A stretch of 64,000 nucleotides of DNA, taken from NCBI RefSeq assembly GCF_003334315.1, contig NZ_QOWR01000008.1. One strand, written 5' to 3'. Under the pieces are notes generated by a model that was not told the DNA's origin, ran no database searches, and saw only the letters and a list, made by a program, of their open reading frames with translations. Of this stretch, positions 4,942 through 59,251 are shown piece after piece (position 1 is the first letter of the stretch; the number at the start of each line of letters is the position of its first letter). The stretch is from Escherichia coli (GTDB taxonomy: Bacteria; Pseudomonadota; Gammaproteobacteria; Enterobacterales; Enterobacteriaceae). The position numbers and the translations under genes were made by a program.

Positions 4942-7019
4942 TATTTGCCGCCAATTGTCGCCGTCATGCGGATATGTCGGTTATCAGACAGTTCCAGATT
5001 CGACAGGACCACTAACTGCGGCAAGCTGCGGCGCAGGAAGCGAGACAATAATGGTCGCAGCGCGTGGTTCACCAACAATACTGGCGGCGCACCCAGCATC
5101 TCCTGACGGGATAGCGCTTCCTGAGTTTGCGCCAGTAAACGATCCGCCAGCCCTGGCTCCAGTCCTCCCCCGCCCTGCAGCGCCTGTAGTAACAAACGTT
5201 CCAGCGGTGTATCGAGGCCAATAACATGGACTTCATCTTTGCCAGGAAACCACTGCTGGGTAATCGCCCGTCCCAACGCCACGCGCACGACGGCGGTTAA
5301 TTCATGTGGATCGCTTTGGATGGGCGCATGTTCCGCCAGCGTTTCGAGAATGGTGCGCATATCGCGAATCGGTACTTTTTCATCGAGGAGATTTTGCAGC
5401 ACTTTATGCAGTGTGGTGAGCGTGACGACGCCAGGAACGAGATCTTCCGTCAGCTTTGGCATCTCCTGGGCGACGCGATCCAACAGCTGTTGCGCCTCCT
5501 GACGACCAAACAGCTCTGCGGCATGCTGGCTAATGAGGTGGTTAAGATGCGTTGCTACCACCGTGCTGGCCTCAACCACTGTGTACCCCTGAATCTGCGC
5601 CTGTTCTTTTAGCGCACTTTCAATCCAGATAGCATTCAGGCCAAATGCCGGATCGACGGTCGCCTCACCAGGTAACGTCCCGGCAGCGATTCCAGGGTTA
5701 ATCGCCAGCCAGCGCCCCGGATAAGCATCACCACTGCCAATCTCCACGCCTTTCATCAAAATGCGATAGCGGGCAGGTTGCAGATCCATATTGTCGCGAA
5801 TGTGCACCACTGGCGGCAGAAATCCCATCTCCTGGGCAAATTTCTTGCGGATACTGCGTATACGGCCCAACAACTCACCATCCTGCTGGAAATCGACCAT
5901 CGGGATCAGTCGATAACCCACTTCCATTCCCAGAGAATCTTCCAGTTGTACATCGTTCCACGTCGCTTCGACAACGGTATTATTCTCTGCCATTTTTACC
6001 GGTTTGGGTTCGGCAGGCGCTTTTTGTTCGCGTCCGCGTATCCACCAGGCCAGCCCGAGCAATCCGGCAGTGAACAGCAAAAATACCAGGTTCGGCATTC
6101 CAGGCACCAGGCCGAGTAAACCGAGCACGGCGGCGCTTAACAACATAACGCTTGGGTTACTGAAAAGCTGATTCACCATCTGCTCGCCAACATCCTGATC
6201 GGTGCTGACACGCGTAACGATGACCCCCGCGGCGGTAGAAATCACCAGCGCCGGAATTTGTGCCACCAGACCGTCGCCAATGGTCAATAGCGTATAACTT
6301 TCCGCCGCGTGTCCCATGCTCATGCCATGTTGCAGCACGCCGACCAGCAACCCGCCGACAACGTTAATGACCATGATGAGGATCCCGGCGATGGCATCGC
6401 CGCGAACAAACTTACTTGCCCCGTCCATTGAGCCGTAAAAATCGGCTTCCTGAGTCACTTCGGAGCGGCGTTTTTTCGCCTCATCTTCACCAATCAATCC
6501 GGCGTTAAGGTCGGCGTCAATCGCCATCTGCTTACCCGGCATACCATCGAGAACAAAGCGCGCACCCACTTCTGCGATACGCCCGGCACCTTTGGTAATG
6601 ACCATAAAGTTGATGATCACGAGAATGACAAACACCACGATACCGATAGCGAAATTGCCACCAACGAGGAAGTGACCGAACGCTTCGACCACCTTCCCTG
6701 CCGCCGCCGCGCCGGTATGCCCTTCCATTAAAATGATACGGGTTGAAGCCACGTTAAGTGCCAGACGCAACAGCGTGGTAAACAACAGAATGGTCGGAAA
6801 CGCAGCAAACTCAAGCGTGCGCTGGGTAAACATCGCCACCAGCAACACCATGATCGACAAGGCAATATTGAAGGTAAACAACAGGTCGAGTATGAATGCG
6901 GGCAGTGGCAGCACCATCATCGACAAGATCAACAGGATCAAAATCGGTCCGGCAAGGATCTGCCATTGTGTCGATTTCAGGTTTGCGGGCAGGCGCAGCA
7001 TCGCGGCCAGATTACTCAT
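4941..7019 (-). CDS. flhA: Flagellar type III export apparatus protein FlhA
   Basis: ORF 4941-7094; start moved to MSNLAAMLRLPANLK (692 aa) matching recalled FlhA. Confidence 0.95.
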   Translation of the reverse strand: MSNLAAMLRLPANLKSTQWQILAGPILILLILSMMVLPLPAFILDLLFTFNIALSIMVLLVAMFTQRTLEFAAFPTILLFTTLLRLALNVASTRIILMEGHTGAAAAGKVVEAFGHFLVGGNFAIGIVVFVILVIINFMVITKGAGRIAEVGARFVLDGMPGKQMAIDADLNAGLIGEDEAKKRRSEVTQEADFYGSMDGASKFVRGDAIAGILIMVINVVGGLLVGVLQHGMSMGHAAESYTLLTIGDGLVAQIPALVISTAAGVIVTRVSTDQDVGEQMVNQLFSNPSVMLLSAAVLGLLGLVPGMPNLVFLLFTAGLLGLAWWIRGREQKAPAEPKPVKMAENNTVVEATWNDVQLEDSLGMEVGYRLIPMVDFQQDGELLGRIRSIRKKFAQEMGFLPPVVHIRDNMDLQPARYRILMKGVEIGSGDAYPGRWLAINPGIAAGTLPGEATVDPAFGLNAIWIESALKEQAQIQGYTVVEASTVVATHLNHLISQHAAELFGRQEAQQLLDRVAQEMPKLTEDLVPGVVTLTTLHKVLQNLLDEKVPIRDMRTILETLAEHAPIQSDPHELTAVVRVALGRAITQQWFPGKDEVHVIGLDTPLERLLLQALQGGGGLEPGLADRLLAQTQEALSRQEMLGAPPVLLVNHALRPLLSRFLRRSLPQLVVLSNLELSDNRHIRMTATIGGK

Positions 7020-8160
7020 GGGTCGGTTTCTCGTTAATAAAATCCAGGGCTTCCGGCACCGGAAGATGAGTAGGTTGTACAGGGCGCTGTCCACCAGCCA
7101 GACGCCAGCGTTTCAGTTGCCAGACCCAGGCCAGCACTTCCGCCACCGCGGCGTACAGTTGACCCGGGATTTGTTGACCAATCTCCGCATGTCGATACAG
7201 CGCTCGCGCCAGCGGCGGCGCTTCAAGCGTCGGGACGTTATTTTCAGCGCCAATTTCACGAATGCGCAGCGCGACCAGCCCTGCACCTTTAGCGACCACT
7301 TTCGGTGCGCTCATTTTGTTTTCGTCATACTGCAACGCTACCGAATAGTGGGTCGGGTTATTGACAATGACATCCGCTTTCGGCACATCGGCCATCATCC
7401 GACGCCGTGCGGCAGCTCGCTGCATCTGACGGATCCGTCCTTTAACATGGGGGTCGCCTTCGCTTTGTTTGAACTCATCACGAATATCCTGCCGCGACAT
7501 TCGCAGCTTTTTCAGGTGGTTGAAGATTTGGAAAAAGACGTCAAATCCCACCATTGGAATGACACCAAGCACCACCAGCAGTGCGCATAGCCCTACCAAA
7601 TCCATCGCATTACCCATGGCGGTAATCGGAGACTCGGCCATTAAGCGCATCATCTGCGGCCAGTGATGCCAGAGAAAAAACCCCGTCACGCTGCCAACCA
7701 GGATGGTTTTCAAAATTGCTTTAAGCAACTCCGCGCCAGTCTGAGCCGAGAACATCCGTTTAATGCCCGGTAGCGGGTTGAGTTTGGAAAACTTCGGCTG
7801 CAAGGATTTGCCGCTAAATACCAGCCCTCCCAGCATGACCGGAGAAATGAGCGCCACCAGTACCACGCCGCTAATCAGTGGCAGCAGCGCCAGCATGGCT
7901 TCTCTGATCAGCAGAATAATCTGCCCGAGGATCAGATTCGGGTCTTTGATAATACTGTGATCAAAATGCAGCCCAGCGGAGAGCATGCCCGACAATCGAC
8001 GGGCCAGCGACACACCGCCAAACCAGATAACACTAACGCCCACCAGCAAAATCAGCAGTGAGGTCAGTTCACGGGAACGCGGGATTTGCCCCTCTTCCCG
8101 CGCTTTTTCTAGTCGGTGAGGTGTGGGGGCTTCTGTTTTGTCGTCGCTCTCGTCAGACAC
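7012..8160 (-). CDS. flhB: Flagellar export apparatus and substrate-specificity switch protein FlhB
   Basis: 382-aa ORF; conserved N-terminus and NPTH autocleavage motif present. Confidence 0.95.
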   Translation of the reverse strand: MSDESDDKTEAPTPHRLEKAREEGQIPRSRELTSLLILLVGVSVIWFGGVSLARRLSGMLSAGLHFDHSIIKDPNLILGQIILLIREAMLALLPLISGVVLVALISPVMLGGLVFSGKSLQPKFSKLNPLPGIKRMFSAQTGAELLKAILKTILVGSVTGFFLWHHWPQMMRLMAESPITAMGNAMDLVGLCALLVVLGVIPMVGFDVFFQIFNHLKKLRMSRQDIRDEFKQSEGDPHVKGRIRQMQRAAARRRMMADVPKADVIVNNPTHYSVALQYDENKMSAPKVVAKGAGLVALRIREIGAENNVPTLEAPPLARALYRHAEIGQQIPGQLYAAVAEVLAWVWQLKRWRLAGGQRPVQPTHLPVPEALDFINEKPTHE

Positions 8161-15328: not shown

Positions 15329-18220
<2,892 letters not shown>

Positions 18221-18224
<4 letters not shown>

Positions 18225-19108
18225 GCTTCCTCGGTTGTCGTCTGTTGTTGCGGATTTTTCACCGCACGCACATGCTCTTCCAGTTCAATAAACGACGGGC
18301 GTTCGCTGGAATAGAGCGTTTTGCGACCAAACTCAACGGCGATAGGCGGTGCGTAACCGTTCAGATTAGAAAGCAGAGTGACTTTGACGCACTGCATCAT
18401 TTTGCTGGTTTCGGCGCTTTTCTGACGTAAAACAGTCGCTAATGGGGAAATAAATCCGTAAGCCAATAAAATGCCGAGGAAAGTCCCCACCATCGCATGT
18501 GCGATAAGCGCACCCAGCTCGGCGGCAGGACGATCGGCTGAACCTAACGCGTGAACGACCCCCATTACAGCCGCAACAATACCAAACGCCGGAAGTGAGT
18601 CCCCGACCAGCGCCAGACTGTTCGCCGGGACTTCTGCCTCGCTTTCGTGCGTCTCAATCTCTTCATCCATCAGGGCTTCGATTTCGAAGGTGTTCATGTG
18701 ACCGCTGATAATCAGGCGCAGATAATCGACGATAAAATCAAGCATGACGCTATCCGCGAGGATGCGTGGGTAGCTGGCGAAGATCTCGCTCTCACGGGGA
18801 TTTTCAATATCACGTTCCAGCGAAAACATCCCCATCTGCCGCGATTTCGCCATCAACCGATAAAGCAGAGCCAGCAGATCCATATACATTGCTTTGGTGT
18901 ATTTGGAGCGACGAAACAGCAACGGCAGCGCCTTCAGCGTGCCTTTAATCGCTTTGCCATTATTGCCGACGATAAACGACCCAATCCCTGCACCGGCAAT
19001 AATCACCAGTTCAGCGGGTTGATAGAGTGCTCCAAGGCTTCCACCGGTCATCAAATAACCGCCGAAAACTGTACCGAGAACAACCAGGTAACCTAATAAG
19101 ATAAGCAC
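18221..19108 (-). CDS. motA: Flagellar motor stator protein MotA
   Basis: 295-aa ORF matching recalled MotA. Confidence 0.96.
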
Positions 19109-19176
19109 GACATCATCCTTCCACTGTTGACCATGACAGGATGTTCAGTCGTCAGGCGTTAACGCGCGATTGGGGC

Positions 19177-19209
19177 AAAAAAAAGCAGCGGTACGTCGTT
19201 ACCGCTGCT
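19177..19209 (-). terminator. Rho-independent terminator of the flhDC operon
   Basis: Hairpin agcagcggta/taccgctgct (19184-19209) followed on the minus strand by an 8-nt U-run. Confidence 0.75.
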
Positions 19210-19234
19210 GGAATGTTGCGCCTCACCGTATCAG

Positions 19235-19813
19235 TTAAACAGCCTGTACTCTCTGTTCATCCAGCAGTTGTGGGATAATATCGGCAGGATTCTGGGAAAG
19301 TTTACGTCTTTTTACTGCCCGGGATGGCGGTTGACATAAGCTGCAGGCAAAGCTGCCAACAGGCTGGTGAGCGTGGGTAATAAAATTGCCGCCGCAGCAG
19401 TTGCAGCTGGAAAGTTGCAGTAATCCACTTTCAACAAACCGCACCAATGTCCAGGCACGGGTTAATGCCAGCAGTGGTCCTTCTTCTGCTTGTGGGCACT
19501 GTTCAAGGTATAAACGGTAGGCTTTGATCACCGCATCGACGCCATTACACAAACCGGTTTTCAGTAAAAACTGCCATGCATTACAGAACATCGAAGCATG
19601 AACGTTTTGTTCCCAGGTCATAAACCAGTCGGTTGAGAATGGCAGCATGCCTTTCGGCGGTGGGCTTCCGCGCAGTTCTTTATAAAGTTTTATCAGGCGT
19701 CCGCGACTTAACTGTGTTTCGCTTTCCAGCATCTGCAAACGAGCGCCCAGGGTGATCAATTCCATTGCCAGCTGAATATCCCGCGCTTCCTGAACAATGC
19801 TTTTTTCACTCAT
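19235..19813 (-). CDS. flhC: Flagellar master regulator subunit FlhC
   Basis: 192-aa ORF with zinc-binding cysteines; matches recalled FlhC. Confidence 0.96.
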
Positions 19814-19815
19814 GA

Positions 19816-20166
19816 TCAGGCCCTTTTCTTGCGCAGCGCTTCTTCAGGCTGATTAACATCATTCAGCAAGCGTGTTGAGAGCATGATGCCGGTATGAATT
19901 TGCTGGAGATCGTCAACGCGGGAATCTTGCGTCAACTGAGTAATCGTCTGGTGGCTGTCAAAACGGAAGTGACAAACCAGTTGATTGGTTTCTGCCAGCT
20001 TAACCATTTGCGGAAGAGTCAGTGCCGCTAACGTTGTCGCCATTTCTTCATTTATGCCGAGACGAAACATAGCGGACGCTTTGTCCTGAACAATCAAACG
20101 CTGTGCAAGTAGTAAATATGACAAGTTGATGTCATAAATGTGTTTCAGCAACTCGGAGGTATGCAT
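19816..20166 (-). CDS. flhD: Flagellar master regulator subunit FlhD
   Basis: ORF 19816-20175; ATG at 20166 gives the 116-aa [17 protein letters not shown] form. Confidence 0.92.
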
Positions 20167-20427
20167 TATTCCCACCCAGAATAACCAACTTTATTTTTAT
20201 GCGGTTTCACCGCACCCCGTGATGTCGCCGGGAAGCCCCGGTAAAAAATAATTAGCATTAGAATAGTTGCGATAAGCTGCAATAAGCAGAACCACCTTTT
20301 TGGTTTAATATGTCCTTACAAATAGAAATGGGTCTTTACACTTATCTAAGATTTTTCCTAAATCGACGCAACTGTACTCGTCACTACACGCACATACAAC
20401 GGAGGGGGGCTGCGATTTTCAATAATG

Positions 20428-20443
20428 TGTGATGCAGATCACA
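20428..20443. promoter_or_regulatory. CRP binding site in the flhDC class 1 promoter region
   Basis: tgtgatgcagatcaca fits the TGTGA-N6-TCACA CRP consensus at the expected distance upstream of flhD. Confidence 0.7.
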
Positions 20444-20945
20444 CAAAACACTCAATTACTTAACATAAATGTATAAGTCATACTTTTGTTTTGGGTGTAT
20501 TTCAATCTGTTAAAAAGTTTTTCGCTACGCTAGCAAGCAAAAATGAAACAGGAATAATCGAAATGGGATGTTGCGCACAGTCAAAATAACTCACCGTAAA
20601 TAATCATCTGCTATAAATAATCACTTTCATTCAATACCAGATAAGCTATTTTTAAACAGACACTTACCGCACAACAAACTAATTAAATACAAAGAAAGGC
20701 AACAATCAACTTAATGTTGATGAAATGTTTTACATATATTAACCACTTGTTTAATGCGGAGAATCAGTACACTATTTTCTTATAATTACATTTGAAATTA
20801 TATGATCACCGGGAGTGATTGATTAATTGTCTTTACTAATAATCAGACTAATATTTACCTGTTTGACCGAGTTGGGATTGCGTCGTTTCTCCATTAGGAG
20901 TAAAGCTTTAATGTCACCTGAAGTTCACAGAATAAGGAACAGGTT

Positions 20946-21374
20946 ATGAGCTATAGCAATATTCTTGTCGCTGTTGCGGTTACACCGGAAAGTCAGCAAC
21001 TGCTGGCAAAAGCGGTATCTATCGCCAGGCCAGTAAAGGGACACATCAGTTTAATTACTCTCGCTTCCGACCCGGAAATGTACAATCAATTAGCTGCGCC
21101 GATGCTTGAAGATTTACGCAGCGTGATGCAGGAAGAAACGCAAAGCTTTCTTGATAAGTTAATTCAGGATGCGGGGTATCCCGTTGACAAGACGTTTATT
21201 GCCTACGGTGAGTTAAGCGAACATATTCTGGAAGTATGTCACAAGCATCATTTCGATTTGGTGATTTGCGGTAATCACAATCACAGTTTCTTTTCGCGAG
21301 CATCCTGCTCGGCGAAAAGAGTTATTGCCTCAAGTGAGGTCGATGTGCTGTTAGTTCCACTTACGGGAGATTAA
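20946..21374 (+). CDS. uspC: Universal stress protein C
   Basis: 142-aa ORF matching recalled UspC (YecG). Confidence 0.93.
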   Translation: MSYSNILVAVAVTPESQQLLAKAVSIARPVKGHISLITLASDPEMYNQLAAPMLEDLRSVMQEETQSFLDKLIQDAGYPVDKTFIAYGELSEHILEVCHKHHFDLVICGNHNHSFFSRASCSAKRVIASSEVDVLLVPLTGD

Positions 21375-21380
21375 CCGCTC

Positions 21381-24733
<3,353 letters not shown>

Positions 24734-29152: not shown

Positions 29153-29414
29153 CGCGGCACTCCGACCATTTGTTATACAGGTGTTATTGTCTTTGCACTT
29201 ATAATATGACAACCATCACAAAAATCAATCTTTATGTGATGTGAATCACATAAATACCCCTTTAATGTTATAAAAATGATAATCAAAAAGCAGCTACCCC
29301 ATTTCTGACACCTACAGATGGCAAGAAATAGCGCCTGCCAGGCGTCTTTTCCGGCCATTGTCGCAGCGCTGTAACGCGTAAAATAGTGCTTTCTTTTACT
29401 CTTCTGGCTGGACC

Positions 29415-43301: not shown

Positions 43302-44612
43302 TTAACCCTGCAGCAGAGACAGAACCTGCTGCGGTACCTGGTTGGCTTTTGCCAGTACGGAGTTACCGGCCTGCTGGATAATCTGCGCTTTCGACATGTT
43401 GGACACTTCGGTCGCATAGTCGGCGTCCTGAATACGGGACTGCGCTTCAGACAGGTTGGTAGTGGTGTTGTTCAGGTTGGTGACTGCGGAATCCAGACGG
43501 TTTTGCACCGCACCGAGGGAGGAGCGGAAAGTATCAACCTGTGCAATCGCTTTGTCTAAAAGTGCCAGTGGATCAGCAGAAGAAGCCCCTGAGAACTGTG
43601 CAGTCGGTTTTGCTGTTGATAATTCAACAACAACTTTATTATCTGTTGCTTTTGCCGCAGTATTATCATCAAGTGCCTTTGAAACCGTTGTAGCGTAGTT
43701 TTTACCTTGGAATGTTACATATCCCGCAGCCGAGCCGTCAGAGTCAGCGGCAACTTTAATCAGTTGATCTTTCTGAGTAGCCGCAGTCGTTAGTCCATTA
43801 TCGGTGTCTGTGTATTCGACATCGGCTTTATTCAACGTGACTTTGCCGTCTGTATGATTAATCGACGCGGAGTAGAAATCATTGCCGGATTGAACGACGA
43901 ACTGTGATGTAGCAGCCCCTTTCGCATCCAGAGTGTTGTGTAACGTCAGGCTAGAAACATCGACTGTTTTACCTGTCGCAGTAGTCAGATCTTTCGCAAC
44001 AGCAGTGAAATCAACACCAACAGGTTTTGCCCCGGCGGCACCGGTAATTTGAGTAATGGAATCACTAACGTTAAGTGACTGACCCGAAACGGAGAAACCG
44101 TTCAGTCCTAATGTAGAAGAGTCAATCTTCTGCAAATCAATGCTAATAGTCTGCCCATCATTCGCGCCAACCTGAATCTTCATCGAACCATCTTTCGCCA
44201 GCACATTCACGCCGTTGAACTGGGTCTGACCGGAAACGCGATCAATTTCATCCAGACGGGATTTGATTTCGTCCTGGATTGAAGACAGGTCAGAATCAGA
44301 GTTAGTCCCGGTCGTCGCCTGAACGGTCAACTCACGCACACGCTGCAAGTTGTTGTTGATTTCAGACAGCGCGCCTTCAGTGGTCTGCGCCAGAGAGATA
44401 CCGTCGTTGGCGTTACGTGCGGCCTGAGTCAGACCTTTGATGTTAGAGGTGAAGCGGTTAGCAATCGCCTGGCCCGCAGCGTCATCTTTAGCGCTGTTAA
44501 TGCGCAGACCAGAAGAGAGGCGCTCGATAGAAGTCGACAGCGCAGACTGGTTTTTGTTGATGTTGTTCTGAGTGATCAGCGAGAGGCTGTTGGTATTAAT
44601 GACTTGTGCCAT
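43302..44612 (-). CDS. fliC: Flagellin FliC (H antigen), 436 aa, non-K-12 central domain
   Basis: ORF 43302-44633; start moved to MAQVINTNSLSLITQNN; N and C termini conserved, central region divergent and shorter than the 498-aa K-12 protein. Confidence 0.95.
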   Translation of the reverse strand: MAQVINTNSLSLITQNNINKNQSALSTSIERLSSGLRINSAKDDAAGQAIANRFTSNIKGLTQAARNANDGISLAQTTEGALSEINNNLQRVRELTVQATTGTNSDSDLSSIQDEIKSRLDEIDRVSGQTQFNGVNVLAKDGSMKIQVGANDGQTISIDLQKIDSSTLGLNGFSVSGQSLNVSDSITQITGAAGAKPVGVDFTAVAKDLTTATGKTVDVSSLTLHNTLDAKGAATSQFVVQSGNDFYSASINHTDGKVTLNKADVEYTDTDNGLTTAATQKDQLIKVAADSDGSAAGYVTFQGKNYATTVSKALDDNTAAKATDNKVVVELSTAKPTAQFSGASSADPLALLDKAIAQVDTFRSSLGAVQNRLDSAVTNLNNTTTNLSEAQSRIQDADYATEVSNMSKAQIIQQAGNSVLAKANQVPQQVLSLLQG

Positions 44613-58786: not shown

Positions 58787-59251
58787 ATGACTGATTACGC
58801 GATAAGCAAGAAAAGCAAGCGATCGCTTTGGATCCCGATTCTGGTATTCATTACCCTCGCGGCCTGTGCCAGCGCAGGTTACAGCTACTGGCATTCGCAT
58901 CAGGTTGCCGCTGACGACAAAGCGCAGCAACGCGTCGTGCCCTCCCCGGTCTTCTATGCGCTGGATACCTTTACGGTCAATCTGGGCGATGCAGATCGCG
59001 TACTTTATATCGGCATAACCCTGCGCCTGAAAGATGAAGCTACCCGCTCGCGGCTGAGTGAGTATTTGCCGGAAGTCCGTAGCCGTTTGCTGTTACTGTT
59101 TTCGCGTCAGGATGCTGCCGTACTGGCGACAGAAGAAGGCAAGAAAAACCTGATTGCCGAGATTAAAACCACGCTTTCCACCCCGCTTGTTGCCGGGCAA
59201 CCGAAACAGGATGTCACCGACGTGCTGTATACCGCTTTTATTCTGCGATAA
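58787..59251 (+). CDS. fliL: Flagellar basal body-associated protein FliL
   Basis: 154-aa ORF with single N-terminal TM helix; matches recalled FliL. Confidence 0.95.

Follow-up and report, generated by a model that had tools for sequence, protein, structure and literature searches.

The region between flhD and uspC in this strain is almost certainly the ancestral, uninterrupted form of wild, non-K-12 E. coli, carrying the native class-1 flagellar promoter. The window analysed in this study, by which we mean the whole stretch of 64,000 nucleotides, contains this intergenic region at positions 20167-20945. According to the open reading frame (ORF) coordinates, it is exactly 779 bp long. On the minus strand lie flhC (19235-19813, 192 aa) and flhD (19816-20166, 116 aa), and on the plus strand lies uspC (20946-21374, 142 aa), followed by otsA. 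These ORFs carry the corresponding annotations in near-identical genomes. flhD and uspC are divergent, which is the arrangement of a native flhDC class-1 promoter region. The FlhD and FlhC proteins were identical to those of K-12, and UspC differed from K-12 by a single substitution, Q62H. All ORFs in the flhE-flhD and fliA-fliR intervals had the expected length, and the flagellar gene set is intact in the window. The GC content of the spacer was 35%, compared with 50.8% for the whole window, with a minimum of 26% around 20600-20800.

The initial annotation had described the region as free of insertion sequences (IS) and had pointed to IS1 or IS5 upstream of flhD in laboratory K-12 lineages. 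Alignment with the MG1655 and W3110 spacers agreed on both points. In MG1655 (NC_000913.3), the flhD-uspC spacer is 1555 bp long and holds an annotated IS1H with insA5 and insB5. This element of 768 bp lies at NC_000913.3 1978503-1979270, with a direct duplication of 8 bp, CATAAATG, at its two ends. The lengths balance, as 779 bp plus the 768 bp of IS1H and the 8 bp of target duplication gives the 1555 bp of MG1655. The W3110 spacer of 1978 bp is likewise the sum of 779 bp, the 1195 bp of IS5 and the 4 bp of TTAA. When MG1655 was stripped of IS1H and a single copy of the duplication, the window aligned with it without gaps over 779 of 779 positions. Four single nucleotide polymorphisms (SNPs) were found in this alignment (window/MG1655): T/C at 20428, T/G at 20631, G/A at 20719 and G/A at 20829. 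The two IS target sites, which occupy 20460-20471 by comparison with W3110 and MG1655, lie side by side in the window and are both single-copy and unoccupied. TTAA, the IS5 site of W3110-type strains, is present at 20460-20463 without duplication. CATAAATG, the IS1H site of MG1655, occurs only once in the region, undoubled, at 20464-20471.

K-12 IS1 and IS5 were also compared directly with the whole window by blastn (word size 7, E<=10), and no similarity was found within 20167-20945. This direct test covered IS1 and IS5, and the remaining IS families are excluded indirectly via colinearity. With no IS1 or IS5 sequence, no duplicated target and a length of 779 bp, not 1555 or 1978 bp, the region falls outside the IS-activated class and belongs to the native flhDC promoter class. 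We considered whether the region could hide a miniature element, an isolated terminal repeat or the decayed remains of an IS. The spacer is long (779 bp) and AT-rich, and an IS1 end is present elsewhere in the window, at 1-204. However, besides the absence of IS1 and IS5 similarity, no ORF longer than 40 aa was present in 20167-20945 (the longest was 40 aa), and no meaningful or close inverted repeats were found there. An Rfam scan of 18000-22000 (E<=1) gave no match; MotR and AsflhD, which are annotated in MG1655, were likewise unmatched. Moreover, more than 5200 E. coli genomes have the full 779 bp at this place with 90-100% identity, which would not be expected of a sporadic mobile remnant. 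A hidden element of this kind is exceedingly improbable.

The frequency of the uninterrupted state was determined in 5426 complete E. coli genomes. In a search with the 779-bp query, pieces separated by up to 889 bp are merged, and copies split by IS1 are then counted as a single place. Uninterrupted genomes were therefore counted with two shorter, overlapping queries that had to be contiguous over at least 80% of their length. The flhD-proximal 474 bp (20167-20640) was contiguous in 5243 of the 5426 genomes, and the distal 496 bp (20450-20945) in 5360 of 5426. Of the 5426 genomes, 65 had the IS1H junction of the MG1655 type and 58 the IS5 junction of the W3110 type. Nearly all of the junction carriers listed were laboratory strains derived from K-12, among them MG1655 lines, W3110, MC4100, DH10B, HMS174 and MC1061. 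About 183 genomes were without a contiguous 20167-20640, and because the carriers of the IS1 and IS5 junctions are almost all K-12, about two-thirds of these genomes are laboratory K-12. These results demonstrate that the insertion-free form is the species norm (about 97% of E. coli) and that the IS in reference K-12 is a laboratory peculiarity. The description of the promoter region as native is well supported by its colinearity with IS-stripped MG1655, the absence of IS sequence and the uninterrupted state in about 97% of genomes. As a separate observation, sequence variation across E. coli was much greater in the uspC-proximal half of the spacer than in the flhD-proximal half. Identities of 90-95% were seen in 1056 genomes for 20450-20945 vs 34 genomes for 20167-20640.

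The chromosome itself was compared with K-12 and with wild isolates. Window positions 204-64000 were 99.95-99.99% identical to the wild isolate AHM9C68I, and positions 8001-33000 showed about 100% identity to several chicken and human isolates. The 779-bp region was 100% identical to that of strain 2018-11-3CC. Around flhDC, the window differed from K-12 at 8 positions in 5.2 kb. The flagellin encoded by fliC (43302-44612, minus strand) has 436 aa vs 498 aa in the H48 FliC of K-12; the N-terminal 175 aa are 94% identical and the remainder about 50%. By sequence, fliC here is a different H-antigen allele, which independently indicates that the chromosome is not of the K-12 type. Since the flagellin differs, the spacer carries four SNPs, UspC carries Q62H and the closest relatives are near-identical wild isolates, the chromosome is not K-12. 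The conclusion in the initial annotation that this is not an MG1655-type chromosome was therefore right, but the missing IS, which it had taken as a sign of this, is not diagnostic. The insertion-free form is the default in about 97% of genomes, and two K-12 stocks lack the IS as well. The original MG1655 stock CGSC#6300 is without IS1H, and MG1655(Seq) is a spontaneous hyper-motile variant (EcoGene 3.0, PMC3531124). BW25113 is also IS-less and is genetically unstable at the flhDC locus (EcoGene 3.0, PMC3531124).

Two further differences from AHM9C68I, the nearest complete genome, were observed in flagellar genes. In the window, flhB (7012-8160, 382 aa) and fliL (58787-59251, 154 aa) are both intact. 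The AHM9C68I annotation marks flhB as frameshifted and fliL as interrupted by an internal stop. The alignment of the window with AHM9C68I has one gap, of 1 bp, which appears to fall in flhB. These lesions of AHM9C68I could be assembly errors or real pseudogenes.

An uninterrupted spacer might also be a revertant, in which an IS formerly present upstream of flhD, as in a K-12 laboratory lineage, was later precisely excised. Precise excision would likewise leave one TTAA and one CATAAATG, and the sequence of the region by itself cannot separate a site that never received an insertion from one that lost it. The non-K-12 identity of the chromosome speaks against this history, and the wild isolates to which it is 99.95-99.99% identical are themselves uninterrupted. 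In a previous study, a screen of 5000 colonies derived from a motile variant with IS5 also yielded no less-motile revertants (PMC1174868). We therefore judge reversion to be very unlikely. The ancestral state is the simplest reading because about 97% of genomes are uninterrupted.

Natural disruptions of the flhD-uspC region do exist, with the same flanking genes, and they are rare; the window is without any of them. In O157:H7 strain F7349, an IS3-family element has inserted at the equivalent of about 20497-20501, which is about -133 to -137 relative to the start site of flhD. A deletion bounded by IS1 has removed flhD through flhE from the gut isolate EC06, and the IS1 joins the spacer at the equivalent of window position 20528. 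In AUSMDU00014361 and B1_2, exactly 235 bp are deleted, and the promoter, the start site and the CRP site are lost. The window contains 12-bp direct repeats, AATAGAAATGGG (20321-20332) and AATCGAAATGGG (20556-20567), which lie 235 bp apart and bracket the promoter, start site and CRP site. A deletion of 235 bp between these direct repeats leaves flhDC without its promoter in AUSMDU00014361 and B1_2. The query for this deletion junction is inflated by joined pieces, and single-piece matches were seen in two genomes among the best 25 matches listed. The raw count for the junction was rejected, as pieces were joined in it as for the 779-bp query, with the same kind of inflation as for IS1-split copies.

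We next describe the flhD promoter in the uninterrupted region. The flhD start site was transferred from K-12, where the annotated end of MG1655 asflhD (1978395) lies 198 nt upstream of the flhD ATG. In the window this corresponds to 20364 and gives a 5' untranslated leader of 198 nt (20167-20364, minus strand). The antisense RNA AsflhD, from the plus strand, overlaps this leader. With the start site at 20364, the TTAA target of IS5 falls at -96 to -99. As this is the published position of the IS hotspot (PMC5100188, PMC1174868), it provides an independent check on the start site. A putative core promoter was assigned at 20371-20399 on the minus strand by reading the hexamers by position relative to 20364. 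It comprises a -35 element TTGTAT (20399-20394), a 17-bp spacer and a -10 element TACAGT (20376-20371). A consensus promoter and terminator scan of 20100-21000 reported nothing. The core promoter was missed by the scan because it is too weak for its thresholds, and this fits an activator-dependent promoter.

The initial annotation had also placed a CRP site in the region, and this was confirmed as an exact motif match. The core TGTGATGCAGATCACA lies at exactly 20428-20443 and has the form TGTGA-N6-TCACA, and two such motifs occur in the 64-kb window, compared with 0.07 expected by chance. Computed relative to 20364, the centre of the site is at -71.5, which is a class I position. Soutourina et al. 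reportedly placed the CRP site at -71.5 in 1999, in agreement with this geometry. Relative to the transferred start site, the region thus has both the CRP site at about -71.5 and the 198-nt leader of the native promoter. The other perfect motif in the window, TGTGATGTGAATCACA, is at 29235-29250, between azuC and yecR. In the AHM9C68I annotation, the azuC start codon is about 83 bp downstream of this motif, which probably serves the azuC promoter as its CRP site.

Previous reports showed for K-12 that cAMP-CRP activates flhDC (PMC3634460, PMC5493358). The flhD leader is a target region, or hub, for small RNAs (sRNAs) and CsrA (PMC3634460), and the flhD-uspC spacer is bound by many negative regulators and nucleoid proteins (PMC5493358). 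Beyond the IS target sites, 20472-20945 forms, by its base composition (GC 26-32%), an AT-rich distal regulatory region that includes the uspC promoter side. On the model of K-12, the weak core promoter would fire from 20364 in dependence on cAMP-CRP bound at the perfect site centred at -71.5. The resulting transcript would carry the 198-nt leader, on which sRNAs and CsrA would act. The AT-rich upstream stretch of about 580 bp would provide the sites from which negative regulators and nucleoid proteins hold expression low.

The same coordinates allow the region to be compared with the known K-12 forms. IS-less K-12 (CGSC#6300 and BW25113) has the same length, gene order, start-site and CRP positions, and empty IS targets (PMC3531124). 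It differs from the window at 4 of 779 positions, namely a C at 20428 and the three distal SNPs, whereas the surroundings in the window are of the wild-isolate type with a different flagellin. MG1655(Seq) has the same flanks, FlhD and FlhC, but carries the 768-bp IS1 with the 8-bp CATAAATG duplication at -100 to -107. This IS1H makes MG1655(Seq) hyper-motile (PMC3531124). The W3110/MC4100/DH10B type has identical flanks and carries the 1195-bp IS5 with a TTAA duplication at -96 to -99, whereas the TTAA of the window is single. NZ_CP083410.1 (strain RP437) showed the MG1655-type IS1 junction upstream of flhD. RP437 is said to have IS5 at this place (PMC5289928). The discrepancy could reflect a stock difference or reference-guided assembly.

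The SNP at 20428 is the sole difference between the window and K-12 inside a known regulatory site. It lies at the first position of the CRP core, which is the perfect palindrome TGTGA-N6-TCACA in the window and CGTGA-N6-TCACA in K-12. The two alleles were counted in the 5426 genomes with 31-mers centred on the SNP, for which megablast seeds essentially exact matches only, allele included. The T allele was present in at least 4470 of 5426 genomes, O157:H7 included, and is the majority form. The C allele was present in 413 genomes, mostly K-12 derivatives and a few wild phylogroup-A-like isolates. These results demonstrate that the K-12 CRP site is a minority, less consensus-like form. Literature searches on this CRP-site SNP and on polymorphism of the promoter among natural isolates gave no relevant paper.

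A CRP half-site nearer the consensus usually binds better. The first T of TGTGA, however, matters less for the binding of CRP than do the G positions. The perfect palindrome may therefore refine the main explanation, in that the promoter would be stronger than that of IS-less K-12 and allow good motility without an IS. The TGTGA half-site here, compared with CGTGA in K-12, the majority status of the T allele and the activation of flhDC by CRP (PMC3634460) are in favour of this. In addition to the smaller contribution of the first T, variation in motility among natural isolates was reported to follow the expression of class III more closely than the activity of PflhD (PMC5289928), which weighs against it. 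We hold this refinement to be possible though rather unlikely. It is more doubtful still that T is the species-typical state and the CGTGA of K-12 a derived, weaker one, and that a K-12-specific weakening of the CRP site underlies part of the poor motility of IS-less K-12.

As the initial annotation had stated, the region upstream of flhD is a known hotspot for IS insertions that activate motility (PMC5100188, PMC5493358, PMC1174868, PMC3531124). In K-12, insertion of IS1 or IS5 from about -96 to -476 raises flhDC expression and motility (PMC5100188, PMC1174868, PMC5493358). By inference from K-12, flhDC expression without an IS would be lower, and it would require cAMP-CRP as well as release from several repressors. 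The initial annotation had called the promoter more tightly repressed, which would be reasonable solely relative to IS-bearing laboratory strains. If the T at 20428 has an effect, its sequence points to stronger activation, not to tighter repression. It may make the promoter somewhat stronger than that of IS-less K-12, and 'tightly repressed' may then overstate the case. In one study of natural isolates, the correlation between PflhD activity and spreading was weak or not significant (PMC5289928).

The IS1 end at 1-204 was also examined. It matches positions 565-768 of MG1655 IS1H, the terminal 204 bp of the element, at 99.5% identity. At the corresponding place, between torY and cutC, the otherwise 99.99% identical AHM9C68I is free of IS1. 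The strain thus carries IS1 in one or more copies, one of which lies about 20 kb from the unoccupied hotspot at flhDC. By analogy with K-12, the strain would have the potential to gain motility through IS insertion, and with this IS1 copy it could yield hyper-motile IS mutants under soft-agar selection, like K-12.

The biology behind the uninterrupted region is already established, and the observation itself is correct and unremarkable. The unusual party at the flhDC locus is the reference K-12 sequences, not the window. The strain would be expected to have an intact flagellar regulon under native control. The count of CRP alleles bears on how far flhDC regulation in K-12 generalises to wild E. 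coli. If the CRP site of K-12 is indeed a weakened form, the repeated laboratory rescue of IS-less K-12 stocks by IS1 and IS5 would have the same cause, and, even with no IS, strains of the present kind would show greater motility and a stronger response to cAMP.
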